DNA of 64,000 bases from assembly GCF_055900595.2 (NCBI RefSeq), contig NZ_CM148325.1; one strand, written 5' to 3'. The notes below the pieces were generated by a model. The model had not been told where the DNA came from. It saw only the letters and a program-made list of their open reading frames with translations, and did no database searches. Of this stretch, positions 38,867-64,000 are shown one piece after another (positions within the stretch are counted from its first letter, which is position 1; each line of letters begins with the position of its first letter). A program made the translations under genes and the position numbers.

Positions 38867-39168
38867 GATTGTCTGCTCCCCTGTCTTGTTATGGGAGCAG
38901 TATTTCGTTGCGGGTCAGTTTGATAAAGGAATTAAAACGTCTTGTTAAGAACAAAGCGTTTTTAGAAAAAAACTGGCAATGGTTAGCGAGTTTACGCATT
39001 TTGCAGCTTGGGCGAATGTAGCATGCCGATTCACAAACCAGATCAGATGTTCGCTCTCCGGCAAATTATTGCCATTTTGTTACATCCATTCCATATCTGT
39101 CGCTGGTAGATTGCCAGCGCCGCGCCGTGATGCATGATAGGAGAATGAGATAATAAGAGAAGAAAAGT

Positions 39169-39798
39169 ATGATTAGGGTTGTGCTGGTGGATGACCATGT
39201 GGTGGTGCGCTCTGGCTTCGCACAGTTACTCTCTCTGGAAGACGATCTGGAGGTCATTGGTCAGTACAGTTGTGCCGCGCAGGCATGGTCGGCATTAACT
39301 CATAATGACGTTAATGTTGCCGTCATTGATATCGCCATGCCGGACGAAAATGGCCTCAGTCTGCTTAAGCGTCTGCGTGCACAAAAACCGCAATTCCGCG
39401 CCATTATTCTTAGCATTTATGACACGCCAACCTTTGTACAAAGCGCTCTGGATGCTGGTGCCAGCGGCTATTTGACCAAACGCTGTGGGCCGGAAGAGTT
39501 AGTGCAGGCGGTGCGCTCGGTCGGGATGGGCGGGCATTATCTCTGCGCCGATGCAATTCGGGCTTTACGCGGCGGCGGGCAACCCGCCCAGGCGTTGGAA
39601 ATTCTCACCCCACGAGAACGTGAAGTGTTTGATTTATTAGTCAAAGGCGACAGTGTCAAAGAGATCGCCTTTAAGCTCGAACTCAGCCATAAAACGGTAC
39701 ATGTACATCGCGCCAACGTGCTGGGAAAACTGAACTGTCATAGCACCATTGAGCTGGTGCATTTTGCACTCAATCACCATCTGCTGGCGGGGCATTAA
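39169..39798 (+). CDS. UhpA-like NarL/FixJ-family response regulator (paralog, not the canonical uhpA)
   Basis: ORF track, 209 aa; receiver domain with conserved Asp residues and C-terminal LuxR-type HTH; close resemblance to UhpA from memory. Confidence 0.85.
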   Translation: MIRVVLVDDHVVVRSGFAQLLSLEDDLEVIGQYSCAAQAWSALTHNDVNVAVIDIAMPDENGLSLLKRLRAQKPQFRAIILSIYDTPTFVQSALDAGASGYLTKRCGPEELVQAVRSVGMGGHYLCADAIRALRGGGQPAQALEILTPREREVFDLLVKGDSVKEIAFKLELSHKTVHVHRANVLGKLNCHSTIELVHFALNHHLLAGH

Positions 39799-41339
39799 TG
39801 TCGCGTAACCTTCGTCATTGGGTGATTTCGCTGTTTATTGTGCTGGCCTGGGGAAGCGGCTGGCTGATGTTGTGGACGCTCAGCTTTTATCTGACCAATA
39901 ACGGTCAACAGGCAGTGTTATTTCTGCCGCACGGAGTTTACCTCGCTCTTCTTATTTTGCTCTCTCGCCGTTACTGGCCTGCGTTGGTGCTCCCCCCTTT
40001 GCTGATGATGTTCTGGCTGCACAGCGAGCAACTGTTGAACGGCTATCTCATGCTGGCAACGCCGGTTATTAGCCTGCTTCCTGCCATCCTTGCACAAAAC
40101 GTCTGGCACCGTTTTCCACTTTACTGGCAGCGTCTGACGTTGCTGTTAGCCTCAGTAACAGCAGCTTCATTGCTGAATACAGCCATGCTAACCCCTTTTA
40201 TGTCAGGCCCAATAATGCTGCCCGGTCTGACCTCATTTACCGGCGGCGTATTGTTGACGCCGTTTGTCTATCTCATCTTTGAGTTTCTGCGCCAGCAGCA
40301 TCGCTATCAGCTTCTGAGACTCGATACGCATAATCCCCCCTTGCGAACCTCTTTAATCATCTGGTGTAGCCTATTTTTTATTATTGGTATCGGCACCCAG
40401 ATGGTGTTGTCGCCTGAAATCGAACGCCTGCTGCTGATCGTGGTATTTCTACCCAATGTGGTCATGGCCTGGAAATTTGGCTGGCAAGGTGGCGTACTCT
40501 CGGGGCTTTTGGGCAGCATGATGATCACTATTGCCCGCCAGATTGGCGTGGGCTTTAGTAACCTGGTGGAACTGGAGATTTTTCTCGCAACCCAGGCATT
40601 GCTGGGAATTGGCCTGGGCATTGCCATCAGTCGCCAGCAACATCTGGCGCTAAACCTGCATCATTACCGTCAGCGACTGGAGGCAGAACTGGCAGCACGG
40701 CGGGCATTGGCTGAAAAGCTGATCCACACCGAGGAAGACACGCGTAAAAGCCTGGCTCGCGAGCTGCACGACGAAATCGGTCAGAACATTACCGCCATTC
40801 AGATCCAGTCGCAACTGGTGACGCGGGCACGCGATCCGGCGCAAGTTCATTCCGCAGCCAGCCAAATCAACGAACTCGCCCGCCGCATTCATCTCTCCAC
40901 CCGCCAGTTGCTGCGCCAGTTGCGGCCACCCGCGCTTGATGAACTGACATTCCGCGAAGCATTACTTCATCTGATTAATGAATTTGCCTTTAGTGAACGC
41001 GGCATTCATTGCCAGTTTACCTATCAACTAACCACCACGCCAGAAAACGAAACGGTTCGCTTTACACTGTATCGGTTATTGCAGGAGTTACTCAATAACG
41101 TCTGTAAACACGCCGAAGCCAGCGAAGTGACGATTATTCTGCGCCAGCAGGGAGAGATATTGCACCTGGAGGTCAGCGACAACGGTATAGGAATCGCCAG
41201 CGGGAAAATGACCGGATTTGGCATTCAGGGGATGCGTGAACGCGTCAGTGCCCTGGGCGGCGACTTAACGCTCGAAAAACATAACGGTACGCGAGTAATT
41301 GTTAACCTGCCCACATTTTTGCAACAAATCGCCGGATAA
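39798..41339 (+). CDS. UhpB-like sensor histidine kinase (multi-pass membrane N-domain + HisKA_3/HATPase)
   Basis: ORF track, 513 aa; H-box LARELHDEIGQ; 1-nt start/stop overlap (TAATG) with the upstream regulator gene. Confidence 0.85.
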   Translation: MSRNLRHWVISLFIVLAWGSGWLMLWTLSFYLTNNGQQAVLFLPHGVYLALLILLSRRYWPALVLPPLLMMFWLHSEQLLNGYLMLATPVISLLPAILAQNVWHRFPLYWQRLTLLLASVTAASLLNTAMLTPFMSGPIMLPGLTSFTGGVLLTPFVYLIFEFLRQQHRYQLLRLDTHNPPLRTSLIIWCSLFFIIGIGTQMVLSPEIERLLLIVVFLPNVVMAWKFGWQGGVLSGLLGSMMITIARQIGVGFSNLVELEIFLATQALLGIGLGIAISRQQHLALNLHHYRQRLEAELAARRALAEKLIHTEEDTRKSLARELHDEIGQNITAIQIQSQLVTRARDPAQVHSAASQINELARRIHLSTRQLLRQLRPPALDELTFREALLHLINEFAFSERGIHCQFTYQLTTTPENETVRFTLYRLLQELLNNVCKHAEASEVTIILRQQGEILHLEVSDNGIGIASGKMTGFGIQGMRERVSALGGDLTLEKHNGTRVIVNLPTFLQQIAG

Positions 41340-41411
41340 CCAGGAAAAAGTCTTAGGCATCCCGGATTTTCTCTCATCCTCTTTCACTTTCATTTTCATA
41401 TAGTCAGCAAC

Positions 41412-42728
41412 ATGGAGACGACCATGCACGCACGTTCAGCGAGAGAGATTAATCAATGCTACCGGACATTACGTCCGCGATTGCTGATGTGCATGATTAT
41501 TGGCTACGCCGCATTTTATCTGACGCGAAAAAGCGTGAATTACGTCCTTCCGGCGCTGCAAACCGACCTCGGACTGGATAAAGGCGACATTGGCCTGCTG
41601 GGTTCGCTGTTTTATCTCAGCTACGGATTGTCGAAATTTACCGCCGGACTGTGGCATGACAGCCACGGACAACGCGGTTTTATGGGCGTCGGCTTGTTCG
41701 CCACTGGGCTATTGAACATGGTGTTTGCCTTTGGCGAATCACTTACGCTTCTGCTTGTGGTCTGGACACTGAACGGTTTTTTTCAGGGCTGGGGATGGCC
41801 ACCGTGTGCCCGCTTACTGACCCATTGGTACTCCCGTAATGAACGTGGTTTCTGGTGGGGCTGCTGGAATATGTCGATCAACATTGGCGGAGCGATTATT
41901 CCGCTGATTAGCGCCTTTGCCGCCCACTGGTGGGGCTGGCAGGCCGCGATGCTGACACCGGGGATTATCAGCATGGCATTAGGGATCTGGTTAACGCTAC
42001 AGCTTAAAGGCACACCCCAGGAAGAGGGATTACCGACGGTGGGTCAGTGGCGTCACGATCCGCTGGAATTACGTCAGGAACAACAAAGTCCGCCGATGGG
42101 GCTGTGGCAAATGTTGCGAACCACAATGCTGCAAAATCCGATGATCTGGCTGCTGGGTGTCTCTTATGTACTGGTTTATGTGATCCGGATTGCGCTAAAC
42201 GACTGGGGCAATATCTGGCTGACGGAAAGCCACGGCGTCAACCTACTCAGCGCCAACGCCACGGTAATGCTGTTTGAAGTGGGCGGCTTACTCGGCGCGT
42301 TATTTGCCGGATGGGGTTCGGATTTGCTGTTTAGCGGGCAGCGAGCCCCCATGATTTTGCTGTTTACCCTTGGGTTGATGGTTTCGGTCGCTGCACTCTG
42401 GTTGGCACCGGTTCATCACTATGCCCTTCTGGCTGTGTGCTTTTTTACTGTGGGCTTTTTTGTCTTTGGCCCGCAAATGCTGATTGGACTTGCGGCAGTG
42501 GAATGTGGACACAAAGCTGCGGCGGGTTCAATTACCGGATTTCTCGGCCTGTTCGCCTATCTCGGTGCGGCGCTGGCAGGCTGGCCGTTGTCGCTGGTTA
42601 TCGAACGCTACGGCTGGTCAGGAATGTTCAGTTTACTCTCGGTCGCCGCAGTACTTATGGGTTTACTGCTGATGCCGTTACTGATGGCGGGCATCACCAC
42701 CACTCACGCTCGAAGGATAAAACAATGA
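41412..42728 (+). CDS. UhpC-like MFS sugar-phosphate sensor/transporter (organophosphate:Pi antiporter family)
   Basis: ORF track, 438 aa; strong resemblance to UhpC/UhpT (e.g. FFQGWGWPPCARLLTHWYSRNERG). Confidence 0.85.
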   Translation: METTMHARSAREINQCYRTLRPRLLMCMIIGYAAFYLTRKSVNYVLPALQTDLGLDKGDIGLLGSLFYLSYGLSKFTAGLWHDSHGQRGFMGVGLFATGLLNMVFAFGESLTLLLVVWTLNGFFQGWGWPPCARLLTHWYSRNERGFWWGCWNMSINIGGAIIPLISAFAAHWWGWQAAMLTPGIISMALGIWLTLQLKGTPQEEGLPTVGQWRHDPLELRQEQQSPPMGLWQMLRTTMLQNPMIWLLGVSYVLVYVIRIALNDWGNIWLTESHGVNLLSANATVMLFEVGGLLGALFAGWGSDLLFSGQRAPMILLFTLGLMVSVAALWLAPVHHYALLAVCFFTVGFFVFGPQMLIGLAAVECGHKAAAGSITGFLGLFAYLGAALAGWPLSLVIERYGWSGMFSLLSVAAVLMGLLLMPLLMAGITTTHARRIKQ

Positions 42729-43756
42729 AAATGCCCCTTACCTCTACTCTGATTGCTTCTGCCGTTGCGCTGGCAACCTTAACGGGTGCCGCACAAGCGA
42801 AAGGTCGACTGGTGGTCTATTGCAGCGCCACTAATGAAATGTGTGAGACCGAAACCAAAGCGTTTGGCGAGAAATATGATGTGAAAACCTCGTTTATCCG
42901 CAACGGCTCCGGTAGCACCCTGGCAAAAGTCGATGCTGAAAAGAAAAACCCACAGGCTGACGTCTGGTACGGCGGCACCTTAGACCCGCAGTCGCAGGCC
43001 GGCGAGATGGGCCTGTTACAGGCATATAAATCGCCTAACCTTGAACAGATCATGGAAAAATTCCGCGATCCGGCAAAAGTGAAAGGAAACCTTTCCTCCG
43101 CCGTTTATGTGGGGATCCTCGGGTTTGGCGTCAACACAGAGCGTCTGAAAGAGAAAAACCTGCCTGTGCCGAAGTGCTGGAAAGATCTCACCAAACCTGA
43201 ATATAAAGGCGAAATTCAGATTGCCGATCCACAAAGTTCCGGTACCGCCTACACCGCGCTGGCTACCTTTGCGCAGCTGTGGGGGGAAGATCAGGCCTTT
43301 GATTATCTAAAACAACTTAACACCAACGTCTCCCAGTACACCAAATCAGGCATTGCCCCGGCACGTAACGCCGCCCGCGGCGAAACGGCGATTGGTATTG
43401 GCTTCCTGCATGACTACTCGCTGGAAAAAGAACAGGGTGCGCCGCTGGAGTTGATTTCCCCGTGTGAAGGTACGGGCTACGAAATTGGCGGCGTCAGCAT
43501 TCTGAAAGGCGCGCGCAACCTCGACAACGCCAAACTGTTTGTGGACTGGGTATTATCAAAAGAAGCTCAGGAACTGGCGTGGAAGAAAGGGAAGTCTTAT
43601 CAGATCCTGACCAATACCACCGCCGAAACGTCGCCAAATTCGCTGAAGCTCGACGACCTGAAATTAATCAACTACGACATGGATAAATACGGTTCCACGG
43701 ATGTTCGTAAGGCATTGATTAATAAATGGGTCAGCGAAGTGAAGATGGGTAAATAA
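42725..43756 (+). CDS. afuA: AfuA/FbpA-type periplasmic substrate-binding protein of an ABC importer
   Basis: ORF track 42437..43756; start placed at MKMPLTSTLIASAVALATLTGAAQA (signal peptide); ATGA overlap with the preceding gene. Confidence 0.85.
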   Translation: MKMPLTSTLIASAVALATLTGAAQAKGRLVVYCSATNEMCETETKAFGEKYDVKTSFIRNGSGSTLAKVDAEKKNPQADVWYGGTLDPQSQAGEMGLLQAYKSPNLEQIMEKFRDPAKVKGNLSSAVYVGILGFGVNTERLKEKNLPVPKCWKDLTKPEYKGEIQIADPQSSGTAYTALATFAQLWGEDQAFDYLKQLNTNVSQYTKSGIAPARNAARGETAIGIGFLHDYSLEKEQGAPLELISPCEGTGYEIGGVSILKGARNLDNAKLFVDWVLSKEAQELAWKKGKSYQILTNTTAETSPNSLKLDDLKLINYDMDKYGSTDVRKALINKWVSEVKMGK

Positions 43757-43824
43757 ACCCGCATTGCGTGCATTTGCCGGGCGCAGCACAAACGCCTGCC
43801 CCGGCCAACCATACCGGAACTGCT

Positions 43825-45903
43825 ATGTCACAGACACTTGCACTCCATCCCGTGAAAAAGCGGGATGCGATTTTCCTTTGGGTTTTGCTGGGCTGGCTGG
43901 CATTTATCCTGTTGCCGAGCTGGAGCCTCGATTATGGCCTGCTGGAGTCCACGAGTGATGAGATCCTCGAGGCTTATGGCTGGTCGCATTTTAATATCAG
44001 CTGGCTGTGGTATTTATTACCGAGTCTGTTGCTGGTTCGTCCGTTTCGTGAGGCCACACGCGAACAGCGTAGTCGTCATTATTTTGATGCCAGTTGGGCA
44101 TTGCTCTGTATGGCGTTTATCGTCATCAGCGCCACCGTGGCTGGACGCGGTTTAGGCTACGCCGCCATCGTGCTGTTTATCGAATTAAGCGCGATAATGA
44201 CGCTGGCCTTAACCCGCCTCGAATGGCTGGGTGGCGACCGCTTTGTGATCGGCTCGCTGATTGCGATTGTGGCGCTGATTGGCATTTTTATCGTCTGGCC
44301 GAGCATCGCCATTTTTATCCCGATGTTCACCAACGACGCGGGAGAGTTCGCCCCACTGGCGTTTATGAATGTGCTCTCGCAGGCCCATATCATTCAGGTG
44401 ATCGTCAACTCTATCGTCTTATCGATAGCGGTGGGTATTGGCTGTACTTTCTTCGGTCTGGTGCTGGCGATATATACCACGCGCATCGCTAAACGCAGCG
44501 CCGTAATCGGCCGCATCTTTTCCATTCTGCCAATTGTCACGCCACCGTTTGTGGTCGGCTTAGGCGTTACGCTCATGATGGGGCGCTCCGGCTACATAAC
44601 GGAATTTATGGTGGAGTGGTTTGGGCTGACCAACACCAACTGGCTGTATGGTTTTACCGGGATCTGGCTGGCACAGGTCCTGGCATTTACGCCAATGGCT
44701 TTTATGATCCTCGATGGGGCCATTAAAACCATTCATCCCTCGCTGGAAGAAGCCTCCTACACCCTGCGCGCCAGCCGCTGGCAAACCTTTAACGGTGTGT
44801 TTGTGCCGTTGTTAAAGCCCGCGCTTGCCAATGCCTTTTTAATCGTTGTGGTGCAGTCACTGGCTGACTTCAGTAACCCGCTGGTGCTTGGCGGCAACTT
44901 CGACGTACTGGCGACGCAAATTTACTTCTACATTACCGGCTCGCAGCTGGATTATCAGGCCGCCAGCACCCTTGGCGCTTTCCTGCTGCTGTTCTCGCTA
45001 CTGGTGTTCTGCGTCCAGTATATGTGGATTGGTAAACGCTCTTACGTCACGGTTTCCGGAAAGTCCTACCGCGGCGATGTCCAGCCACTACCGGTCACCC
45101 TGGTGTGGAGCGTGGTCGCCATACTTGCGATATGGATTGCCTTTAACGCCCTGCTCTATGGCAGCATTTTCTACGGCAGCTTCACTGTGAACTGGGGCGT
45201 TGACTACACCCTGACGCTGGATAACTTTATCAAGTTATTTGGTCAGGGGATGAGCGACGGCGCGTGGCCTTCACTGTTAGATACCTTGCTCTACGCCGGG
45301 ATTGCCGCCCCCATTACCGCTATCTTTGGCCTGCTCATCGCCTGGGTGGTGGTGCGCCAACAATTCAAAGGCAAAAAGACCATAGAGTTCACCACCATGT
45401 TGTGCTTTGCCGTACCGGGTACAGTGGCGGGTGTCTCGTATATTCTTGCCTTTAATAGCGCCCCGGTCTATCTCACCGGAACGGCAGCAATTGTGATTAT
45501 TTCGATGGTGATGCGCAACGTTCCGGTGGGTATTCGCGCCGGGATTGCAGGTCTGGGGCAGATCGACAAATCGCTGGATGAAGCCTCACTTAGCCTGCGT
45601 GCGGGTTCCCTGCGAACCATTACGCACATTTTACTGCCGTTGTTACGCCCAGCTATTCTCTCGGCCCTGATTTACAGCTTTGTGCGGGCTATCACGACGG
45701 TCAGCGCCATCGTCTTTCTCGTCACGCCGGACACACGCGTGGCAACCGCCTACATCCTTAACCGCGTAGAAGACGGCGAATATGGCGTAGCCATCGCCTA
45801 CGGTTCGATTCTGATCGTGGTGATGCTGGCGATTATTTTCCTCTTTGACTGGCTGATCGGTGAAGCACGTATTTCCCGTTCTAAAGCCAAAAACCAGGCG
45901 TAA
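43825..45903 (+). CDS. afuB: AfuB/FbpB-type fused two-domain ABC permease
   Basis: ORF track 43768..45903; start placed at MSQTLALHP (692 aa); many transmembrane segments. Confidence 0.85.
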
Positions 45904-45914
45904 TGGAGCGCACT

Positions 45915-46961
45915 ATGAGTCAGAAAAATTTTGTGGAACTGCGCAACGTCACTAAACGATTCGGCAGTAATAGGGTTATCGACAATATCAATCTCACCAT
46001 CCCACAAGGGCAAATGGTGACGCTGCTCGGTCCTTCCGGATGCGGCAAAACCACCATTCTGCGTCTGGTTGCCGGGCTGGAAAAACCGAGCGAAGGGCAA
46101 ATTTTTATAGATGGCGAAGATGTCACGCATCGTTCCATTCAGCAACGCGATATCTGCATGGTGTTTCAGTCATACGCTCTGTTCCCACATATGTCGCTGG
46201 GCGAAAACGTTGGCTATGGGCTGAAAATGCTTGGCGTGTCGCGTAGTGAAGTGAAGCAGCGGGTGAAAGATGCGCTAGCAATGGTGGATCTGGAAGGATT
46301 CGAAGACCGCTATGTCGACCAGATTTCCGGTGGTCAGCAACAGCGTGTGGCTCTGGCCCGTGCGTTGATCCTTAAGCCTAAAGTGCTGCTGTTTGATGAG
46401 CCGTTAAGTAACCTCGATGCCAACCTGCGTCGCAGCATGCGCGATAAAATCCGCGAGCTGCAAAAGCAATTTAACATCACTTCGCTCTATGTGACTCACG
46501 ATCAAAGTGAAGCTTTCGCGGTGTCCGACACCGTGTTGGTGATGAATAAAGGTCACATCATGCAGATTGGTTCACCGCAGGATCTCTATCGTCAGCCCGC
46601 CTCCCGCTTTATGGCAAGTTTTATGGGCGACGCCAACCTGTTCCCGGCGAACTTTAGCGAAGAGTATGTCGATATCTACGGTTATCGCCTGCCGCGCGCG
46701 GCGCATTTCCCGGCGCAAGGTAGCGGCACCGTCGGCGTTCGCCCGGAAGCCATCACCTTAAGCAATCACGGCGAAGAGAGTCAGCGTTGTGTTATTCGCC
46801 ATGTCGCCTACATGGGGCCGCAGTACGAAGTGACCGTAGAATGGCATGGTCAGGAGATTTTATTGCAAGTCAACGCCACCCGTTTACAGCCCGATATTGG
46901 TGAGCACTATTACCTCGAAATCCATCCTTACGGGATGTTTGTTTTAGCGGATGCGGCATAA
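45915..46961 (+). CDS. afuC: AfuC/FbpC-type ABC ATPase
   Basis: ORF track 45903..46961; start at [12 protein letters not shown]; Walker [10 protein letters not shown], signature ISGGQQQRV. Confidence 0.88.
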
Positions 46962-46973
46962 AAATAGCACATA

Positions 46974-47003
46974 AACGGTCCCAACCTGTCTTGAGGGACC
47001 GTT
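46974..47003 (+). terminator. possible afuC terminator hairpin (aacggtccc ... gggaccgtt)
   Basis: 9-bp perfect inverted repeat 13 bp after the afuC stop; trailing T-run is weak. Confidence 0.45.
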
Positions 47004-47042
47004 CACCTGTTTAGACGTCGGACAACAATTATTCTCAGGTGT

Positions 47043-50331: not shown

Positions 50332-50432
50332 CTTTGTTTCCAAACCCGCTGAATAATTTTTAGCGAGTATACCTGTAAACGCCGTAGGTGTATTGGGGGC
50401 AAGTCCCTTTCGCCCCTACCTAATAAGGCGCG

Positions 50433-51644
50433 TCAGGCATCGGCGCACGGCTGCATTCGTGATTTTCGACTCATCAAAATAAACACCGCTAATCCAGCAA
50501 CAAGAATACCCGGCGCAGATGCGGCCATTACGCCAACCGTGCCAGTGCCTAATGCCAGCATTTTCCCTGCCAGCAACGGGCCGCTCATGGCACCCAGACG
50601 CCCAATCGCCACGGCGGTTCCCACGCCGGTTGCGCGGATCTGCGAACTGTAAAACAACGGAGCCAATGCATACAAAACGCTTTGCCCACCTGTTGCAAAC
50701 AACCCTGCGACGAATCCCGCCAGCAACATACCGTTAAATGATGACACTGTTCCCAGCGCTAACAGCGAAGCTAACATACCGCTATAAATCAGTAGCGACA
50801 TGGTCATTGGACGCAGTTTATCCATCAGTGCGCCCAATATTAACGTCCCGCTTGCCGCCCCCATTTGTAGTGCAAACATCACCCCTGCCGCCTGCGATGG
50901 CTGGAATCCTTGTTCCACTAAAAGCAGCGGTAGCCAGTTGATCAACATGTAGACCACCAGCAAAGTGAAGAAATAACACAACCACAGCAGCAGCGTTGCG
51001 GTTGCCGTGTCGGGCGCAAATAACGCACGCAGCGGCGGCGCAGCCTGTTTTTCGCCAGCGAACACCATCGACTCCGGCAGCCAGCGCATTAACAGCGGCA
51101 CCAGAATCAACGGCACCACACCACCTACCCAAAACACCGTTTGCCAGGCTAAGTTTGCCCCCGCGAAACCCAGTGTCGCCGCCAGCGCCGCGCCAATGGG
51201 AACACCGCAATACATCAGGCTCACTGCCCTCCCACGAAAACGTGGACCCGCGGCTTCAGACGTCAGGGCGATAAGATTCGGCAACGCCGCCCCCAGCCCG
51301 ACACCGGTCATCAGCCGCGCAAAGACCAGTGAGGGGAAATCCCAGGCAATCGCCGTTGCCAGTGAGAACAAACCAAACAGCGCAACTGAGCCAATCAAAA
51401 TGCGCTTGCGACCATAACGGTCCGCCAGCATTCCACCAACCAACGCGCCGGGTAGCAAACCGAGTATTCCGGCGCTGAATATCCAACCCATTTGCATTTT
51501 ATCGAGTGCAAAAGCCTGGGCGATGCCACCCGCCGCAATGCCAGCCGCCTGAAGATCCAGTCCTTCCATCAGAGCGACCAAAAAACAAAGCCCGATGGTC
51601 AGCATCAGGCGGGATGAAGATGATGAAGGGGTACGAGTCGACAT
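50433..51644 (-). CDS. mhpT: 3-(3-hydroxyphenyl)propionate MFS transporter MhpT
   Basis: ORF track 50433..51713; start placed at MSTRTPSSSSSRLMLT (403 aa). Confidence 0.9.
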   Translation of the reverse strand: MSTRTPSSSSSRLMLTIGLCFLVALMEGLDLQAAGIAAGGIAQAFALDKMQMGWIFSAGILGLLPGALVGGMLADRYGRKRILIGSVALFGLFSLATAIAWDFPSLVFARLMTGVGLGAALPNLIALTSEAAGPRFRGRAVSLMYCGVPIGAALAATLGFAGANLAWQTVFWVGGVVPLILVPLLMRWLPESMVFAGEKQAAPPLRALFAPDTATATLLLWLCYFFTLLVVYMLINWLPLLLVEQGFQPSQAAGVMFALQMGAASGTLILGALMDKLRPMTMSLLIYSGMLASLLALGTVSSFNGMLLAGFVAGLFATGGQSVLYALAPLFYSSQIRATGVGTAVAIGRLGAMSGPLLAGKMLALGTGTVGVMAASAPGILVAGLAVFILMSRKSRMQPCADA

Positions 51645-51714
51645 AAGATGAACCTCGTTGCGAATGCAGGTGAATCGCGGCTGATACATTGCCAGCCGCG
51701 TAATCAAAACCATT

Positions 51715-51835
<121 letters not shown>

Positions 51836-51843
51836 GCACGTTG

Positions 51844-52865
51844 TCAGCAGTCACATGATTTGTTGTTGCGCAGATCCAGCGCCACGTCGACGATCATATC
51901 CTCCTGGCCGCCGACCATCCGGCGTTTACCCAGCTCAACGAGAATATCCACCGCGCTTAAACCATAACGCGCCGCCGCCGTTTCACAGTGACGCAAAAAG
52001 CTTGAGTAAACACCAGCGTATCCCAGCGCCAGCGTTTCGCGGTCGACACGTACCGGACGATCCTGCAACGGACGCACCAGGTCGTCAGCGGCATCCATTA
52101 ACGCATAGAGATCGGTCCCATGCTGCCAGCCCAGTTTATCCGCGGCGGCAATAAACACTTCCAGCGGTGCGTTACCTGCACCCGCGCCCATCCCCGCGAG
52201 GCTAGCGTCGATGCGGTCACAGCCCTCTTCCACCGCCGCGATAGAGTTCGCCACACCAAGACTCAGGTTATGGTGAGCATGCATGCCAGTTTGCGTTTCC
52301 GGTTTGAGCACCGCTTTCAGGGCGCGGAAACGGTCGCGGATATCGCTCATGTTCATCGCACCGCCAGAATCCACCACATAAATACAGGTCGCACCGTAGC
52401 CTTCCATCAGCTTTGCCTGCTTTGCGAGATTCTCCGGCGTGGTCATGTGGCTCATCATCAGAAAGCCAACGGTATCCATTCCGAGTTCGCGGGCATACTG
52501 AATATGCTGAGCGGAAACATCAGCTTCGGTGCAGTGCGTAGCCACACGCACCACCCGCGCGCCAGCCTGCCAGGCATTTTTCAGATCGTGAATAGTGCCA
52601 ATTCCTGGCAGCAACAACGTCGCGATTTTGGCGTGCTTCACCACATCCGCCGCCGCTTCAATCCATTCAAGGTCGCTATGTGCGCCGAAACCATAGTTAA
52701 AGCTGGAACCCTGCAAACCATCGCCATGGGCCACTTCAATCGAATCCACGCGGGCATCATCCAGTGCTTTGGCAATCTGGCGGACATTTTCAAGTGAATA
52801 CTGATGACGAATGGCGTGCATACCGTCACGCAACGTGACGTCTGAAATATAAAGTTTTTTACCGT

Positions 52866-52869
<4 letters not shown>
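51844..52869 (-). CDS. mhpE: 4-hydroxy-2-oxovalerate aldolase MhpE
   Basis: ORF track, [19 protein letters not shown]. Confidence 0.95.
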
Positions 52870-54631
<1,762 letters not shown>

Positions 54632-55498
54632 TTAAGGACGTGCGAGGAAATTCAGTACCAGTTGATTGAAAGCGTCGGCATGTTCCCACTGAGCCCAGTG
54701 ACCACAGTCGCGGAAGATATGCAGCTCAGAACCGGCGATGCCAGAAAGCAGACGCAGCCCTGCGTCCATCGGCACAAAACGGTCGTTACGCCCCCAGACA
54801 ATCAGAGTTTGCGCTTTGATTTCCGCCAGACGTGGGCCAAAATCCGGGAACTGTTTCGGATTGGCTTCCAGGCTCTTAACGAAGTTTTCCAGGTGATCGC
54901 GACGCGACAGCATATTATTCAGGCGCGCTTCAAACAGGGCGTCAGTCAAATCGCTGGTATCGAAAACGAAGATATCCATCATCAGCTTCAGATTTTCGAT
55001 AGTCGGCTGGCGATAAAGCTGATTCAGTCGCTTAATGCCTTCAGTTGGCATCGGCGTAAACAAACTCATGCCACCTGTACCGCCGCCCATCAGCACCAGT
55101 TTGCCGACGCGCTCCGGCCAGTTAAGGGTGAACGCCACAGAACTGTGGCCGCCCATCGAGTTGCCCAGCAGGTGGATTTTGGCGATATCCAGTTGATCCA
55201 CCACGCTTTTCAGGATGCGCGCATTGAGATCCGATCGCGAACCACTGTTAACGATCGAATCGCTCTTACCCCAACCAGGACAATCCAGCAGGATCACCCG
55301 ATAACCCGCTTCTACCAGCGGATCGATATTGCGGCTGAAGTTCGCCCAGCCCGTAGCCCCCGGGCCGGAGCCGTGCAGCAGGACAACGGTTTCGTCGCCT
55401 TGACCGCAGTCATTAAAATGGATGCGCAGCGTTTTACCCGCTTCTTCTACATTTAGAAAACGGCTGGTGGCGGCTTCGGTTTGTGGCTGATAACTCAT
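54632..55498 (-). CDS. mhpC: C-C hydrolase MhpC (alpha/beta hydrolase)
   Basis: ORF track 54632..55561; start placed at [14 protein letters not shown]; GNSMGG motif. Confidence 0.9.
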
Positions 55499-55515
55499 CA
55501 TCTTCTCCTGCATAT

Positions 55516-56460
55516 TCAGTTCTCTGTTCTGGCGCTTAACGAGCCAAATCCGGCAATCCACTCCGGGATCGGGCGGTAATAACGCCCTTCGCTACGCCAG
55601 TTGCCAAACGCAGAAATAGCGGCAAAAGCAGCGACCCAGGTTTTGATTTCATGTGTCGACTTTCCTGCAATGGCGGAAAGCTCTTCGTTACTGACGGCAT
55701 CCAGTTCCTGTATGCGTCCCTGCTCCAGCAAAGACATGAACTGGTTATCCCAAATCGGGTTGAGCGGATGCAGAGTTCTCTGATCCTCAACAAACCTCTC
55801 AGCGGCGCTAATCACCCGTTGCTGGCGCATTTCGCGCTCATTGGCGGGCAAATCTTTCCCGCTACCCAACAGACGATCGCGCATATGGGCATCCGCTTTC
55901 GCCAGTTCTGGCACTGGCGGCTGATGGGAAAGCCCACCGGAACCCAGGAACAGCACGCGCTTATTCAGCGTGCTGGTGAAACGTCCAATGGCTTCACCCA
56001 ACATGCGGGTACGCTGAAAACCAGGTAGCGGCGTGGCGACACCGTTGATGAATACAGGTAGGACCGGCACCTTATCCAGCCCACCGAGCAAGAACTCCAG
56101 CGGCTGGGCGAACCCATGATCCACCTGCATACAGTAAGAAACGGCAAGATCAATCCCGCTCTTCATGACGGCATGTGCACAATCCTCCGCCAACTCCACA
56201 GGCACAGGAAGCTCTCCTGCCGCACTGCCGAAATCGCCAATTGCCGTCGCCCCAACGCCTAAACAGAAGGGTGGCATCACGTCATAGAAAAAACCGTTGT
56301 AATGATCTGGCGCAAACAGCACCACCAGTTCAGGGGAGAAGGCCGCAATACGCTCGCGGGCACTGGCAATCACGCCATTGACCTCATCGAGTATCTCTTG
56401 CGCCGGGTCGACATACCCTACCAGCGGCGAGTGGGAAAGACAGTGAAGATAAGCGTGCAT
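55516..56460 (-). CDS. mhpB: extradiol dioxygenase MhpB
   Basis: ORF track, 314 aa, [19 protein letters not shown]. Confidence 0.95.
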
Positions 56461-56461
56461 A

Positions 56462-58126
56462 TCAGGCTACCTTTTCGACAGAAACGTCGACATCAGGGCG
56501 GTTGAGTGTCATCACGGACGCCAGTTTATTCAGCGTATTACCCAGAGTTTGCGGAATGGCGATGGCGGCAACAAAGCGATCCGGGCGCATCACCACTAGC
56601 GAAGCATTATGTTGTGCGAACCAGCTACGCATGCGACCTTGCGTATCGCCCACGCGCAGCACGCCGTCGTAGTTATCCTGCGCGGTATGAATTTGCACAT
56701 CCGGCACCACCTGAATGAAGCGAGTACCCAGCGCGCGCCATTGCTGGATTTGCTCATCGCTCATCCCCCACAGTGGATTGCATCCCCAGCCAATTACCGC
56801 GAAGTTCGCGCCGATCGCGTTATCGAGCAACGTCACGTCGCCGTTTTCCAGCGTAACTTTCGGCTGAATAAACATCTTGCCGACCGGAGAGTGTTTCGCT
56901 TCGCCTTCACGCACCAGCGCACCGGCGTAATATTGCGGCATCGGCTTGAAGCGCATTTCGAGAAAGTAGCGTTTTACTGGCGGCAGATAATTCAGCAGCC
57001 AGGAAACACCGTCACGTAACGTACCCTGCCAGCGTTTCGGCGGAGCCAGTACGTTGCCCGCCGTCACCGACAGATCAATCATCGCTTTGGCGTGATCGCG
57101 ACGTTCTTGTTGATAGGTATCGAGCAGCGCATCGCGAGCTTTCCCCTGGATAACCAACGCCAGTTTCCAGGCGAGGTTAAAGGCGTCGCGCATACCACTG
57201 TTATAGCCCTGCCCCTGCCACACCGGCATGATATGTGCGGCATCGCCCGCCAGCAGTACGCGGTCAATACGAAAACGTTGTGCCAGTCGCGCGTTGTGGG
57301 TGTAGACACGCTGGCGAATCAACTCGACGTTGTCCGGATTAGGCAGCACTTTGCTTAACAGCTTGCGCATATTTTGCGGCTCGCGGAGCTGTTCTTCGGT
57401 TTCGCCCGGCATCACCATAAATTCAAAGCGACGTACCGCATGAGGCAGAGCCGCAGAAACATACGGGCGCACCGGATCGCAACACAAATAGATATGCGGC
57501 GTACTTAACGGATCGTTGGCGATATCCACCACAATCCACTGATTTGGTGCGGTTTTACCTTCAAACGGCACATTCAGGGTGCGCCGGACAAAACTTGCTC
57601 CACCGTCACAGGCTACCAGCCACTGGGCTTTGACCGTTTCCCGCTGCCCTTCTGCCGTTTTCAGATACAAGGTCACTTCGTCATCTTGCTGGCTGAAGGC
57701 CTCCAGCTCGCGGGAAAACAGGCAGCGCACATTCGGAAACCGCGACAACCCTTCCAGCATCACCGCATCGACCTGCGGCTGAATAAAGGCGTTACGACGC
57801 GGCCAGCCAAATTCATCGGTCATTGGCTGAATATCAGCAAAACAGCGGCCTTTTGGGGTAAGAAAACGCATCGCATGCCACGGCGTAGTGTGCGGCAGAA
57901 CATTATCGACAAGGTCAACCGACTGCATGGTGCGCAGCGCCTCGTCATCAATTCCAATCGCGCGTGGATAGTCGATCAACTTATCGAGTTTCTCCACCAC
58001 CAGCACGTCAATGCCCATCTGGCCGAGATAGTTCGCCATCATCAGCCCGACCGGACCGGCACCAGCGATCGCCACCTGAACGCAATGGTTAATAGCAGGC
58101 TGGATGTCAGGGTGTTGTATTGCCAT
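56462..58126 (-). CDS. mhpA: 3-(3-hydroxyphenyl)propionate hydroxylase MhpA (FAD monooxygenase)
   Basis: ORF track, 554 aa, [27 protein letters not shown]. Confidence 0.95.
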
Positions 58127-58265
58127 TTCAGTACCTCACGACTCGGAAAAAATGCCGTTGCGCGCACAGTTCAACGCAACTTATTTTGTTAAAAACATGT
58201 AAATGATTTTTTATTGTGCGCTCAGTATAGGAAGGGTGTTTTCGGCTACAATCAAAACATGCCTG

Positions 58266-58286
58266 AGTGTGCACCAGGTGCACAAC
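58266..58286. promoter_or_regulatory. candidate MhpR operator palindrome (gtgcacc-a-ggtgcac) in the mhpR-mhpA divergent region
   Basis: Near-perfect 15-17 bp palindrome seen between the divergent mhpA and mhpR starts. Confidence 0.5.
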
Positions 58287-58316
58287 GTTGTTTTAAATAT
58301 AGAAATGTCAATTAAT

Positions 58317-59150
58317 ATGCAGAAAGATGAGCAGACGGAATACAAAACCGTGCGCGGCTTAACCCGCGGTCTAATGTTATTAAATATGTTAAATAAACTC
58401 GATGGCGGTGCCAGCGTCGGGCTGCTGGCGGAGCTCAGCGGCCTGCATCGCACCACTGTGCGGCGACTGCTGGAAACGCTGCAGGAAGAGGGATATGTCC
58501 GGCGCAGTACCTCCGATGACAGTTTTCGTCTGACCATCAAAGTGCGGCAATTAAGCGAAGGATTTCGTGACGAACAATGGATTTCTGCACTGGCAGCCCC
58601 GCTGCTGGGCGATCTGTTGCGCGAAGTGGTATGGCCGACAGATGTGTCCACGCTGGATGTTGATGCAATGGTGGTACGCGAAACCACCCACCGTTTCAGC
58701 CGTTTATCTTTTCACCGGGCAATGGTCGGACGGCGTTTACCGCTCCTGAAAACCGCCTCGGGACTGACCTGGCTGGCCTTTTGCCCGGAACAAGAACGCA
58801 AGGAGTTAATCGAAATGTTAGCCGCCCGCCCCGGTGATGACTATCAACTGGCACGGGAACCGTTAAAGCTGGAAGCCATTCTGGCGCGCGCACGCAAAGA
58901 GGGTTACGGACAGAACTACCGTGGCTGGGATCAGGAAGAGAAGATCGCCTCCATTGCCGTGCCCCTACGCAGTGAACAACGGGTGATTGGCTGTCTGAAT
59001 CTGGTGTATATGGCAAGCGCAATGACCATCGAACAGGCAGCGGAAAAGCATCTTCCGGCGCTACAACGGGTAGCAAAACAGATCGAAGAAGGGGTTGAAT
59101 CGCAGGCTATTCTGGTGGCCGGACGGCGAAGCGGCGTGCATTTACGCTAG
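58317..59150 (+). CDS. mhpR: IclR-family activator MhpR
   Basis: ORF track 58203..59150; start placed at MQKDEQTEYKTVRGLTRGL (277 aa). Confidence 0.9.
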   Translation: MQKDEQTEYKTVRGLTRGLMLLNMLNKLDGGASVGLLAELSGLHRTTVRRLLETLQEEGYVRRSTSDDSFRLTIKVRQLSEGFRDEQWISALAAPLLGDLLREVVWPTDVSTLDVDAMVVRETTHRFSRLSFHRAMVGRRLPLLKTASGLTWLAFCPEQERKELIEMLAARPGDDYQLAREPLKLEAILARARKEGYGQNYRGWDQEEKIASIAVPLRSEQRVIGCLNLVYMASAMTIEQAAEKHLPALQRVAKQIEEGVESQAILVAGRRSGVHLR

Positions 59151-59264
59151 TTGCGCCAATGTGTAATTTGGCCCATTCTCATCGTTATTCGCCCATTTGC
59201 CCACATGCACAGTACGGGCTGCACGCTACGCTAATGCCATCAATACTGTGATGTGGAGCAAATC

Positions 59265-60041
59265 ATGAAAATTACTCAAATTCGTAATGCCACCCAAATT
59301 ATCCAATACGCTGGCAAAACATTTCTTATTGACCCGTTACTCGCGCCTAAAGGAAGTTATCCGGGTTTTGCCGGAACGGCACGCGCAGAAATCCGCAATC
59401 CAACGGTAGAATTACCGTGCGATTTAACAACGTTACTCAACGTTGACGCCCTAATAGTGACCCATTTGCATGAAGATCATTGGGACGAAACAGCCTCCCG
59501 CGTCGTCCCCAAAGATAAACAGATTTATGTGCAAAATGAGCAAGATGCTGAATCACTGCATAAACAAGGATTTACGCATCTTACCGTACTTGCCGACGAG
59601 ACTAAATTTGGCGATATTACTCTGCATAAAACGACAGGGCAGCACGGCTCCGATCGCACCTATGCAGACCCGGCTATGGCGAAGCGTTTAGGCGCAGCCT
59701 GCGGCGTTGTTTTCCAGCACCCGACAGAGAAAACGCTCTATCTGGCTGGCGATACCCTCTGGCGTGATGACGTCGAGGCTACAATGCTAACTTTCCAACC
59801 AGAAGTGGTGGTGTTGAATGCCGGATTTGCGCATGTTCTGGGGCATGGCGCGATAATTATGGGAGCTGAAGATATTCTCAAAACACATTTTACCCTGCCA
59901 GAAGCGCAAATTGTCGCGACACATATGGAGGCCGTAAACCACTGTTTGCTGACGCGTGATGCGCTCAAGGAATACGCCAGAGATAATCAAATTATCGAAT
60001 TTGTGAACGTACCAGAAGATGGTGAAACGTTGACATTCTAA
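59265..60041 (+). CDS. metallo-beta-lactamase-fold hydrolase (HxHxDH motif THLHEDHWD), function unknown
   Basis: ORF track 59253..60041; start placed at MKITQIRNATQ with a GGAG RBS upstream; motif seen directly. Confidence 0.8.
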   Translation: MKITQIRNATQIIQYAGKTFLIDPLLAPKGSYPGFAGTARAEIRNPTVELPCDLTTLLNVDALIVTHLHEDHWDETASRVVPKDKQIYVQNEQDAESLHKQGFTHLTVLADETKFGDITLHKTTGQHGSDRTYADPAMAKRLGAACGVVFQHPTEKTLYLAGDTLWRDDVEATMLTFQPEVVVLNAGFAHVLGHGAIIMGAEDILKTHFTLPEAQIVATHMEAVNHCLLTRDALKEYARDNQIIEFVNVPEDGETLTF

Positions 60042-60060
60042 TTCGGAGATAAAGAGTGTT

Positions 60061-61014
60061 ATGCGCCCGCTAACTGTTGCCATTATCGCCGTTGCCGGTT
60101 TTAGTCCTTTTCACCTTTCCGTACCGTTTATCGTGTTTAGCGAAAAAATGGCGGAGAAAAAACGCTTTCATGTAATTATCTGCGCTGAAAAGCCGGGAAA
60201 TGTGGACTCTGCCGATGGGTTTTCCGTAACCGCCACCCATGACTATACGGCAGTCATCCAGGCGGATATTGTGATAATTCCTTACTGGGGAACAATTACA
60301 CAAAAACCGCCACAAAAACTGCTGGAAGCCTTAACGATCGCACGAGATAACGGGGCACAGATTGTCGGGCTTTGCCTGGGCACGTTTGTGCTCGGCTATG
60401 CAGGTTTACTGAACAATAAGCGTGCTGCCACGCACTGGGAGTTCGAGCGTGAATTTCAGGCACGTTTTCCACAAACACATCTGGATATTAACGCGTTGTA
60501 TGTAGACGATGATGGCATTATTACCTCTGCCGGTACTGCCGCGGCGCTGGATTGCTGTTTGTATATTGTTCGGCAACATTTTGGCAGCGACTATGCTAAC
60601 CATATTGCCCGACGGATGGTCGTACCGCCATATCGCACCGGCGGTCAGGCGCAGTTTATAGAGCAACCGGTGCCGAAAAATACCCATGATGAACGCATTA
60701 ACCTCCTGCTGGATTACCTGCGGCAAAACATTGCGCAACAGCATGATCTCGACTCGCTGGCTCAGCGAGTAATGATGAGTCGCCGCACACTAACCCGTCA
60801 TTTTATGAAAGCGACCGGTTCGAGTATCGCCGAATGGCTCATCACTGAACGCTTACGCCGTAGCCAGGAACTGTTGGGATCCAGTCAGTTGCCCGTTGAG
60901 CGGATAGCGGCTGAGGTGGGTTTTCTCTCACCTGTGACCTGGCGTCAGCATTTTAAATCTCACTTCGGCGTCAGCCCCGCAGAATGGCGCAAAACCTTTC
61001 GTGGTATGGCATGA
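60061..61014 (+). CDS. GlxA-type regulator: N-terminal DJ-1/PfpI-like domain + C-terminal AraC-family HTH
   Basis: ORF track, 317 aa; C-terminal AraC signature (...SPVTWRQHFKSHFGVSPAEWRK); RBS ggagataaag upstream. Confidence 0.85.
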   Translation: MRPLTVAIIAVAGFSPFHLSVPFIVFSEKMAEKKRFHVIICAEKPGNVDSADGFSVTATHDYTAVIQADIVIIPYWGTITQKPPQKLLEALTIARDNGAQIVGLCLGTFVLGYAGLLNNKRAATHWEFEREFQARFPQTHLDINALYVDDDGIITSAGTAAALDCCLYIVRQHFGSDYANHIARRMVVPPYRTGGQAQFIEQPVPKNTHDERINLLLDYLRQNIAQQHDLDSLAQRVMMSRRTLTRHFMKATGSSIAEWLITERLRRSQELLGSSQLPVERIAAEVGFLSPVTWRQHFKSHFGVSPAEWRKTFRGMA

Positions 61015-61015
61015 T
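60987..61015 (+). promoter_or_regulatory. lacI promoter (-35 gcgcaa, -10 catgat) lying inside the last ~10 codons of the upstream GlxA-type gene
   Basis: Sequence gaatggcgcaaaacctttcgtggtatggcatgatagcgcccggaag matches the classical lacI promoter region (site of the lacIq -35 change) from memory; here it is the 3' coding end of the upstream ORF. Confidence 0.7.
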
Positions 61016-61050
61016 AGCGCCCGGAAGAAAGTCAATTCAGGGTGGTGAAT

Positions 61051-62126
61051 GTGAAACCAGTAACGCTATACGATGTCGCGGAGTATGCCGGTGTCTCTTA
61101 TCAGACCGTTTCCCGCGTGGTGAATCAGGCCAGCCACGTTTCAGCGAAAACGCGGGAAAAAGTGGAAGCGGCGATGGCGGAGCTAAATTACATTCCCAAC
61201 CGCGTAGCACAACAGTTAGCGGGCAAACAGTCGTTGCTGATTGGCGTTGCCACCTCCAGTCTGGCCCTGCACGCACCGTCGCAAATTGTCGCGGCGATTA
61301 AATCTCGCGCCGATCAACTGGGTGCCAGCGTGGTGGTGTCGATGGTAGAAAGAAGCGGTGTCGAAGCCTGTAAAGCGGCAGTACACAATCTTCTCGCGCA
61401 ACGCGTAAGTGGTCTGATCATCAACTATCCGCTGGATGACCAGGATGCCATTGCTGTGGAGGCAGCCTGCGCTAATGTTCCGGCGCTATTTCTTGATGTC
61501 TCTGACCAGACTCCCATCAACAGTATTATTTTTTCCCATGAAGACGGTACGCGGCTGGGCGTAGAGCATTTGGTCGCATTGGGTCACCAGCAAATCGCGC
61601 TGTTAGCGGGCCCATTAAGTTCTGTCTCGGCGCGTCTGCGTCTGGCGGGCTGGCATAAATATCTTAAACACAATCAAATTCAACCGATAGCGGAACGGGA
61701 AGGCGACTGGAGCGCCATGTCCGGTTTTCATCAAACCATGCAGATGCTGAATGAGGGCATCATTCCTACCGCGATGCTGGTTGCCAACGATCAGATGGCG
61801 CTGGGTGCAATGCGCGCCATTACCGAGTTCGGGCTGCGCGTCGGCGCGGATATCTCGGTAGTGGGATACGACGATACCGAAGACAGCTCGTGTTATATCC
61901 CGCCATTAACGACCATCAAACAGGATTTTCGCCTGCTTGGGCAAACCAGCGTGGACCGCTTGCTGCAACTCTCTCAGGGCCAGGCGGTGAAGGGCAATCA
62001 GCTGTTGCCCGTCTCACTGGTGAAACGAAAAACCACCCTGCCACCCAATACGCAAACCGCTTCTCCCCAGGCGTTGGCTGATTCCTTAATGCAGCTGGCG
62101 CGACAAATTTCCCGACTGGAAAGCGA

Positions 62127-62133
<7 letters not shown>
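61051..62133 (+). CDS. lacI: lactose repressor LacI, GTG start
   Basis: ORF track 61042..62133; canonical start GTG AAA CCA GTA (MKPVTLYDVAEYAGVSYQTV), 360 aa. Confidence 0.95.

Positions 62134-64000
<1,867 letters not shown>

Follow-up and report, generated by a model that had tools for sequence, protein, structure and literature searches.

The 64,000-nucleotide (nt) stretch of Escherichia coli DNA analysed here (contig NZ_CM148325.1 of RefSeq assembly GCF_055900595.2; hereafter, the window) contains the lac repressor gene lacI directly behind ovrA, an intact gene for a GlxA/FtrA-like regulator. Between mhpR and lacI, ovrA is preceded by a gene for an MBL-fold metallo-hydrolase, the ortholog of z0443 and a conserved partner of ovrA (Table 1), and the gaps are short, with 19 nt between the MBL gene and ovrA and 36 nt between ovrA and lacI. 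Both genes are missing from K-12-type genomes. The promoter of lacI as known from K-12 is found here within the last codons of ovrA, and its origin is the subject of this report. From position 59100 to 61100, the window is 100% identical to strain Z0117EC0005 (NZ_CP098223).

The regulator shares 99.4% protein identity with OvrA of O157:H7 (z0442, in O-island 19, or OI-19) and occupies the same site, between mhpR and lacI and directly after the MBL gene. RefSeq names it "OI-19-encoded virulence regulator OvrA" in O157-type genomes, and OvrA (z0442) and z0443 of O-island 19 in enterohemorrhagic E. coli (EHEC) O157:H7 were reportedly treated by Liu et al. in 2020 (J Infect Dis). Pfam places a DJ-1_PfpI domain at residues 6 to 171 (3.8e-11), HTH_18 at residues 233 to 311 (3.4e-19), and HTH_AraC at residues 275 to 311, and NCBIfam family matches reach residues 312 to 315. 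Codons E308 to K311 therefore belong to the DNA-binding domain, an AraC-type helix-turn-helix (HTH). The score against the NCBIfam model for the FtrA equivalog (NF006902) is 323 bits, below the curated cutoff of 425, so that the protein is FtrA-like only. The MBL gene lies directly upstream of the regulator gene in the 26 outgroup loci listed (L005 to L030) and in Citrobacter rodentium.

Table 1. Features of the mhpR-lacI region and of related loci (window positions unless a locus is named)
Feature	Position	Strand	Extent, basis, or remarks
mhpA	56462-58126	minus	
mhpR, IclR-type regulator	58317-59150	+	RefSeq annotation transfer; NCBIfam NF007341, 346 bits; junction alignments
Segment missing from K-12-type genomes (= O-island 19), 1,833 nt	59149-60981		BLAST boundaries 59146/59148 and 60982; junction alignment
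Conserved motif TTGGCCCATTCTCATCGTTATTCGCCCATTTGCCCACAT, 39 nt, upstream of MBL gene	59168-59206	+	Alignment of 15 upstream regions
MBL-fold metallo-hydrolase gene (z0443 ortholog)	59265-60041	+	Conserved ovrA partner
ovrA, GlxA/FtrA-like regulator, 317 aa, intact	60061-61014	+	DJ-1/PfpI domain and AraC HTH
ovrA 3' remnant in mhp-less E. coli, 99 nt	60916-61014	+	Order: yaiL, C, remnant, lacI
ovrA 3' remnant on Klebsiella-type lac plasmids, 86 nt, frameshifted	60929-61014	+	1,279 plasmid records
ovrA stump kept in K-12-type genomes, 33 nt	60982-61014	+	Codons E308-A317 plus TGA; begins 5 nt upstream of -35
lacI -35, GCGCAA	60987-60992	+	Last base of W309, all of R310, first two bases of K311
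Spacer between -35 and -10, 17 nt			Last base of K311 through first base of A317
lacI -10, CATGAT	61010-61015	+	Last two bases of A317 codon, TGA stop (61012-61014), next base
lacI, GTG start	61051-62133	+	Followed by lac promoter/operator, then lacZ from 62257
Methyltransferase-like gene, 202 aa	L011, 4948-5556	opposite strand	Also in L005, L007-L010, L012-L014, L016, L018

Position of the lacI promoter within ovrA

Pairwise alignment of the window with K-12 (MG1655, NC_000913, positions 365500 to 369500) shows that homology is lost at 59146 to 59148 on the mhpR side and regained exactly at 60982 (GAATGG...). From there to 61053, 70 of 72 bases are identical to the K-12 lacI promoter and leader, with mismatches at 61002 and 61029, and by this alignment the match is one of direct homology rather than a chance match to a consensus. 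A sequence-only reading of the window had proposed that the DNA before the lacI GTG is the K-12 lacI promoter including its GCGCAA element, quoted as gaatggcgcaaaacctttcgtggtatggcatgatagcgcccggaag (60982 to 61027), and the alignment bears this out, although the interval given for it, from 60961, begins 21 nt upstream of the K-12 homology. The same reading had placed the promoter in frame within the last approximately 11 codons of the 317-residue open reading frame, which ends in ...SPAEWRKTFRGMA-TGA. The frame is correct, but the remnant in K-12 amounts to 10 codons plus the stop. Read in the ovrA frame, this K-12 stump translates as EWRKTFRGMA followed by two stops, which is the conserved end of the AraC-type HTH and agrees with the further proposal that the lacI promoter is a fossil of the C terminus of the regulator.

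The hexamers GCGCAA and CATGAT, which we take after Calos 1978 to be the -35 and -10 elements of lacI, are separated by a 17-nt spacer in the window as in K-12. Transcription of lacI would presumably start at 61023 on the plus strand, 28 nt before the GTG, if the start assumed for K-12 is carried over by homology. The pair GCGCAA/CATGAT fell below the threshold of a generic promoter scan, which therefore passed over the site and lends no independent support. The K-12 promoter is described as intergenic and its coding origin is unannotated, whereas the same DNA lies inside an intact gene in the window. In the window, ovrA ends with two in-frame stops, TGA TAG (61012 to 61017). C. rodentium (L088, approximately 3960 to 3967) has TCA TAG (Ser, then stop) in their place, with CATCAT as the -10 hexamer, so that the C/G difference between the two species alters the length of OvrA and the -10 hexamer alike.

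The coding role of these bases was assessed in orthologs from a scan of one genome per species, which left 80 loci whose C termini were all examined. All 80 OvrA orthologs end in ...SPxx(W/Y)RxxF, mostly as EWR(K/R)TF(R/G)G, and the arginine equivalent to R310 is invariant. The set includes Citrobacter, Kluyvera, Erwinia, Aeromonas, Geomonas, Pseudomonas, and Marinobacter; in the non-Citrobacter loci listed (L019 to L030), tblastn found no lacI beside ovrA within the flanks. Because the motif is present in every ortholog, including those from genera in which lacI was not detected nearby, the coding role is the older one. It predates lacI and is independent of it, and the promoter is written in coding DNA. 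At the level of sequence, the domain assignment, the ortholog tails, and the translation of the stump settle that the -35 hexamer and the spacer are ovrA coding sequence.

The lacIq mutation is a single C:G-to-T:A change at -35 (PMC4217526). A search for the lacIq hexamer gave nothing beyond primer sequences. In the window this change corresponds to 60988 C to T and, since the hexamer covers W309-R310-K311, it would hit the invariant residue (R310C). In genomes with the full layout, promoter and protein would therefore constrain each other. A comparison by eye of synonymous sites in the last codons of promoter-bearing and non-promoter copies of ovrA gave no signal of dual constraint, the stretch being short and conserved in both.

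Layouts of the locus across E. coli genomes

Three layouts account for 99.2% of a sample of 5,426 complete E. coli genomes. The full segment is retained in 435 genomes (8.0%), always on the chromosome and in single copy; the K-12 junction is present in 4,460 (82%); and 487 (9.0%) have a junction with yaiL, with the mhp operon absent. The full layout exists as two alleles 2.1 to 2.8% apart, one of the O157:H7/O145:H28 type (97.2 to 97.9% identical to the window) and the window's own, whose ovrA-MBL DNA is matched at ≥99% identity by only 18 complete genomes.

The K-12 junction reads ...CATTTACG(C/T)T, then GACACCATC, then GAATGGCGC..., with 1,833 nt swapped for the 9-nt filler GACACCATC. The left breakpoint lies inside the mhpR stop codon and the right one 5 nt upstream of the -35 hexamer, which leaves 33 nt of ovrA. 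The mhpR stop codon is TAG in the window (59148 to 59150) and TGA in K-12-type genomes, because the breakpoint falls after the T. This scar also bears on the IQ1 mutation, a 15-bp deletion that creates TTGACA 18 bp from the -10 (PMC4217526); its description and that of lacIq both fit the window and K-12 sequences arithmetically. In K-12, the TTGACA of IQ1 consists of the last base of the final mhpR codon, the TGA stop, and the first two bases of the filler. The window reads CGCTAGTTGCG at the end of mhpR, and TTGACA is absent from full-layout genomes. The -35 of the strongest classical lacI promoter is thus a product of the deletion scar.

At the yaiL junction, a single C separates the DNA upstream of yaiL from window position 60916. 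The corresponding deletion covers 10,519 nt (50397 to 60915) and takes the mhp operon, mhpR, the MBL gene, and ovrA codons 1 to 285. This truncation is independent of the K-12 type. The Prokaryotic Genome Annotation Pipeline (PGAP) calls its 99-nt remnant an incomplete pseudogene of a GlxA family transcriptional regulator with the N terminus missing. The call is automatic; the 33-nt K-12 stump is unannotated, and the link to the promoter is not made.

The mechanism of the K-12-type deletion was also considered. A search of both strands of the deleted segment for the source of the filler GACACCATC gave best matches no better than those of shuffled sequence, and a match of the filler to the 3' end of the MBL gene (ACGTTGACA) was dropped as chance. 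No direct microhomology was found at the deletion endpoints (P = 0.60). An imperfect inverted repeat, TTGCGCCAATGTG and CAGAATGGCGCAA (59151 to 59163 and 60980 to 60992), lies within 3 nt of both endpoints and contains a perfect 8-nt core, TTGCGCCA/TGGCGCAA (empirical P about 0.0125). The O157 allele has it in a weaker form (TTACGCCA), its geometry leaves the endpoints unexplained, and the inverted 8-mer was rejected as the deletion mechanism.

The same scar (mhpR, GACACCATC, GAATGG) was observed in a contig from ERR3985422 (Logan; L096, 3880 to 4040) with approximately 92% DNA identity to K-12 and a LacI 87% identical to that of the window. The contig represents either a divergent Escherichia lineage or a noisy assembly. 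With the scar on DNA of this divergence, the K-12-type deletion is therefore old or has spread by recombination.

The window is itself unusually divergent for E. coli in this region, its mhp-lac DNA (56000 to 64000) being approximately 94 to 96% identical to K-12 and O157-type genomes. Parts of lacZ show 89 to 93% DNA identity, and the N-terminal segment (62257 to 63990, 578 aa) shows approximately 84% protein identity. The lacZ promoter spacer differs from that of K-12, and the O1 operator core AATTGTGAGCGGATAACAATT is intact by eye. Farther upstream, strain SC455 lacks approximately 8 kb (39005 to 47028) located between the tauA and frmR regions.

O-island 19 in Citrobacter and ovrA stumps beyond E. 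coli

The 1,833-nt segment missing from K-12-type genomes is known as OI-19, a 1,834-bp O157 island with z0442 (ovrA) and z0443, and OvrA has been reported in O157:H7 as an AraC-type activator of LEE1/ler, in the locus of enterocyte effacement (LEE), which recognizes a motif of the LEE1 promoter (PMC10877973, PMC8565820). Neither review ties OI-19 to lacI, and the word "lacI" occurs 0 times in PMC8565820.

C. sedlakii, C. rodentium, and the C. freundii complex carry the segment at the syntenic site, with mhpR or its equivalent on one side and lacI on the other. The gene order in C. sedlakii is mhpR-MBL-ovrA-(36 nt)-lacI-lacZ, with ovrA ending in ...RGMA-TGA and CATGAT as the -10; that in C. 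rodentium is MBL-ovrA-(33 nt)-lacI-lacZ-lacY, with ovrA ending in ...RGVAS-TAG. Since both species share the order MBL-ovrA-lacI-lacZ, the OI-19 segment is ancestral. OvrA proteins of E. coli and Citrobacter are 73 to 80% identical and LacI proteins 78 to 84%, compared with 75 to 94% and 81 to 96%, respectively, within Citrobacter. The two identity matrices are congruent and place E. coli outside the diversity of Citrobacter (as distance matrices, without a tree), and nothing suggests that ovrA was imported recently.

In the C. freundii complex, MBL-ovrA is followed by the methyltransferase-like gene on the opposite strand and then by lacI. The stop of the methyltransferase-like gene overlaps that of ovrA, whose tail there is RGD, RGV, or RGA before the stop and not RGMA; in C. 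youngae ATCC 29220 (L015), most of the inserted gene has been deleted again. Just before lacI, the promoter segment recurs in these genomes in decayed form. The copy in Citrobacter sp. MGH106, ATGACGAAAAACCTTTCATGGTGTGGCATGATAGCGCG, agrees with the end of C. sedlakii ovrA in 34 of 38 bases by visual count, and a stop has taken the place of the Trp codon. A repeat search of the ovrA end of these genomes against their own lacI-proximal copy found nothing at an 8-nt seed, and the identification of a second copy therefore rests on homology across genomes.

These observations bear on whether OI-19 was lost or gained. In the literature it figures as an "O island" that K-12 lacks, and an alternative to loss is a horizontal insertion in the O157 lineage, into the lacI promoter of a K-12-like ancestor, with the open reading frame running on into the promoter by chance. 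The segment is slightly lower in G+C than its flanks (0.47 to 0.53 versus 0.53 to 0.58), and in the window allele the weak inverted repeat TTGCGCCA/TGGCGCAA stands at both boundaries (P about 0.0125), but in the O157 allele this repeat is less pronounced. The two genes are all that the 1.8-kb segment contains, and neither is a mobility gene; no flanking direct repeats were found, and no integrase or tRNA was noted, with no dedicated tRNA scan made. The run-on codes in frame for the family motif EWRKTFRG, which an accident could not produce. The gene order of the two Citrobacter species, the longer ovrA 3' fragments with different left ends in the second E. coli class and on lac plasmids, and the 9-nt filler in K-12, as expected for a deletion scar, likewise argue against insertion, which we consider highly improbable. 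The deletion of the MBL gene and most of the regulator gene that the sequence-only reading had ascribed to K-12 is upheld by the Citrobacter synteny, the congruent distances, and the second truncation, but it is not specific to K-12, being shared by 4,460 genomes. The K-12 spacer is homologous to the end of ovrA and no longer holds the two genes, the 1,833 nt being absent.

Stumps of ovrA are also found ahead of lacI outside E. coli. The plasmid records with the 86-nt remnant are mostly Klebsiella IncF plasmids, in which the remnant is approximately 92% identical and has unrelated genes as left neighbors. Citrobacter koseri keeps approximately 48 nt of the ovrA end, with a spacer 1 nt shorter, and Salmonella bongori approximately 33 nt, while in Pseudenterobacter both the -35 and the -10 block survive around a diverged spacer. 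In Salmonella enterica (at the acnB-yacL site), Klebsiella oxytoca, and Tatumella, only a GTGGCAT(G/C)AT block is left, and the DNA upstream of lacI in Pectobacterium cacticida is further diverged. Several truncations thus differ in their left ends, and the promoter is kept in each.

Origin and use of the promoter

The reading preferred here, with a probability of roughly 85%, is that the lacI promoter is the 3' end of ovrA and that the "intergenic" promoter of K-12 is an exapted coding fragment left by deletions. The ancestral layout, with lacI 36 nt behind ovrA, would be the one kept in the window. A weak sigma-70 promoter inside the last codons of ovrA would drive lacI in this genome from a start near 61023, and the same bases would be under two constraints, as the end of the HTH and as a promoter. 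Later deletions would have taken ovrA from most lineages, each surviving deletion stopping short of the promoter. Selection for LacI expression would be the simplest explanation for the retention of the promoter in every surviving truncation.

A different origin is conceivable for the downstream half of the promoter. Only the -35 and the spacer may come from ovrA, with the -10 and leader being lacI's own, the variable ovrA tail (MA, then stop) running on into them, and the promoter assembled as a hybrid when lacI landed beside ovrA. Most of the lacI orthologs examined, at protein identities as low as 68%, are preceded by a conserved GTGGCAT(G/C)AT block, which has degenerated in Pectobacterium; before lacI of Tatumella, K. 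oxytoca, and Salmonella it stands without ovrA-like DNA ahead of it, and the OvrA tail is variable across orthologs beyond G315, as a hybrid junction would have it. The end of the Kluyvera ortholog, however, GGGATGGCGAGCGAGCGC-TAG (GMASER, then stop), matches E. coli GGTATGGCATGATAGCGC at 13 of 18 bases; past the G-M-A codons common to both, 6 of 9 agree (P about 0.01). No lacI was detected within 4 kb in Kluyvera, and the match suggests that the tail of ovrA reaches through the -10. Deeper truncations combined with a new -35 from a new neighbor explain the short remnants in distant genera equally well. A hybrid junction is therefore regarded as unlikely, though it keeps some weight.

A second alternative concerns use rather than origin. 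In full-layout genomes, lacI may be mainly the distal gene of an (mhpR-)MBL-ovrA-lacI transcript, with the embedded promoter becoming dominant only after the deletions. No terminator-like site was found between MBL, ovrA, and lacI, and upstream transcription can therefore in principle enter lacI across the short gaps, so that modulation of LacI by read-through from upstream, as the sequence alone suggests, is possible. A 39-nt motif upstream of the MBL gene (Table 1) is probably an operator or promoter of the MBL-ovrA pair and a candidate source of such read-through. When 15 upstream regions, drawn from E. coli, Citrobacter, Kluyvera, Erwinia, and Aeromonas, are aligned, it is almost unchanged in all Citrobacter loci and partly recognizable in Kluyvera, Erwinia, and Aeromonas (GGCCC.AT...ATCG....GGCC).

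Expression data from an array study of EDL933, as given in its main text, bear on the same point: z0443 shows a 10-fold RpoS dependence, and mhpR is also RpoS dependent (PMC2907692). This hints at regulated, stationary-phase transcription toward lacI in full-layout strains. The main text of that study does not name lacI despite the 10-fold change of z0443, and this absence argues weakly against strong read-through. The promoter bases are, moreover, equally conserved in full-layout and deleted genomes, and their retention in every independent truncation implies a function prior to the deletions. A mainly operon-driven lacI appears improbable on this balance.

Several points weigh against the derivation of the promoter from ovrA or limit its reach. 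Use of the promoter in a full-layout strain, with initiation at the K-12 start site, would follow by extension from K-12. The lacI genes of S. enterica, K. oxytoca, and Tatumella conserve only the -10 block and not the -35/EWRKTF block, and the -10 and leader may be DNA of lacI rather than the tail of ovrA. The 9-nt filler of the K-12 scar has no detectable source on either strand of the deleted segment. The scar on the contig approximately 92% identical to K-12 makes a loss by "the K-12 lineage" too narrow a description. Finally, Escherichia is absent from the 80 loci of the one-genome-per-species scan, and retention within the genus is documented only in E. coli.

A broader proposal, which we put forward tentatively and hold to be somewhat less likely than not, is that all lacI-lacZ(Y) operons of the Enterobacterales, chromosomal and plasmid borne, derive from one ovrA-lacI locus, in which a promoterless lacI had its promoter carved from AraC-type C-terminal codons. 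If this were true, the length and sequence of the ovrA stump would be a heritable scar tracing each horizontal transfer of a lac operon, and the donor of the lac region of Klebsiella plasmids would be Escherichia-like, with no less than 86 nt of ovrA still in place. Wherever ovrA is retained, a lacIq-style strengthening would be impossible without destroying the regulator.

Promoters located in the coding end of an upstream gene, or surviving as gene remnants, are a well-known bacterial arrangement. The principle is the same here, a sigma-70 promoter in 3' codons with a fragment that outlives its gene, but the present case differs in that both states and several truncation lengths coexist in nature for a textbook promoter whose -35 lies on an invariant DNA-binding residue. 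The promoter, the regulator, and the island are each already known. No link of the lacI promoter to ovrA/z0442, GlxA, or mhpR was found in a literature search that missed most subscription journals, the primary OvrA paper, and older work on lac evolution; the overlap, the ancestral status, and the family of stumps were likewise not found in the literature searched, which is no proof of absence.

The derivation from ovrA accounts concretely for the origin of a promoter that is among the most widely used in molecular biology. OI-19, treated in reviews as an O157 island, is here ancestral, shared with Citrobacter, and lost in approximately 91% of E. coli genomes, so that the role of OvrA in virulence would be that of an old regulator recruited to LEE and not of an imported one. 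The lengths of the stumps may serve as markers for the transfer of lac operons, including the lac region of Klebsiella plasmids, and a promoter that lies over an invariant HTH residue would be a small natural case of dual coding and regulatory constraint.

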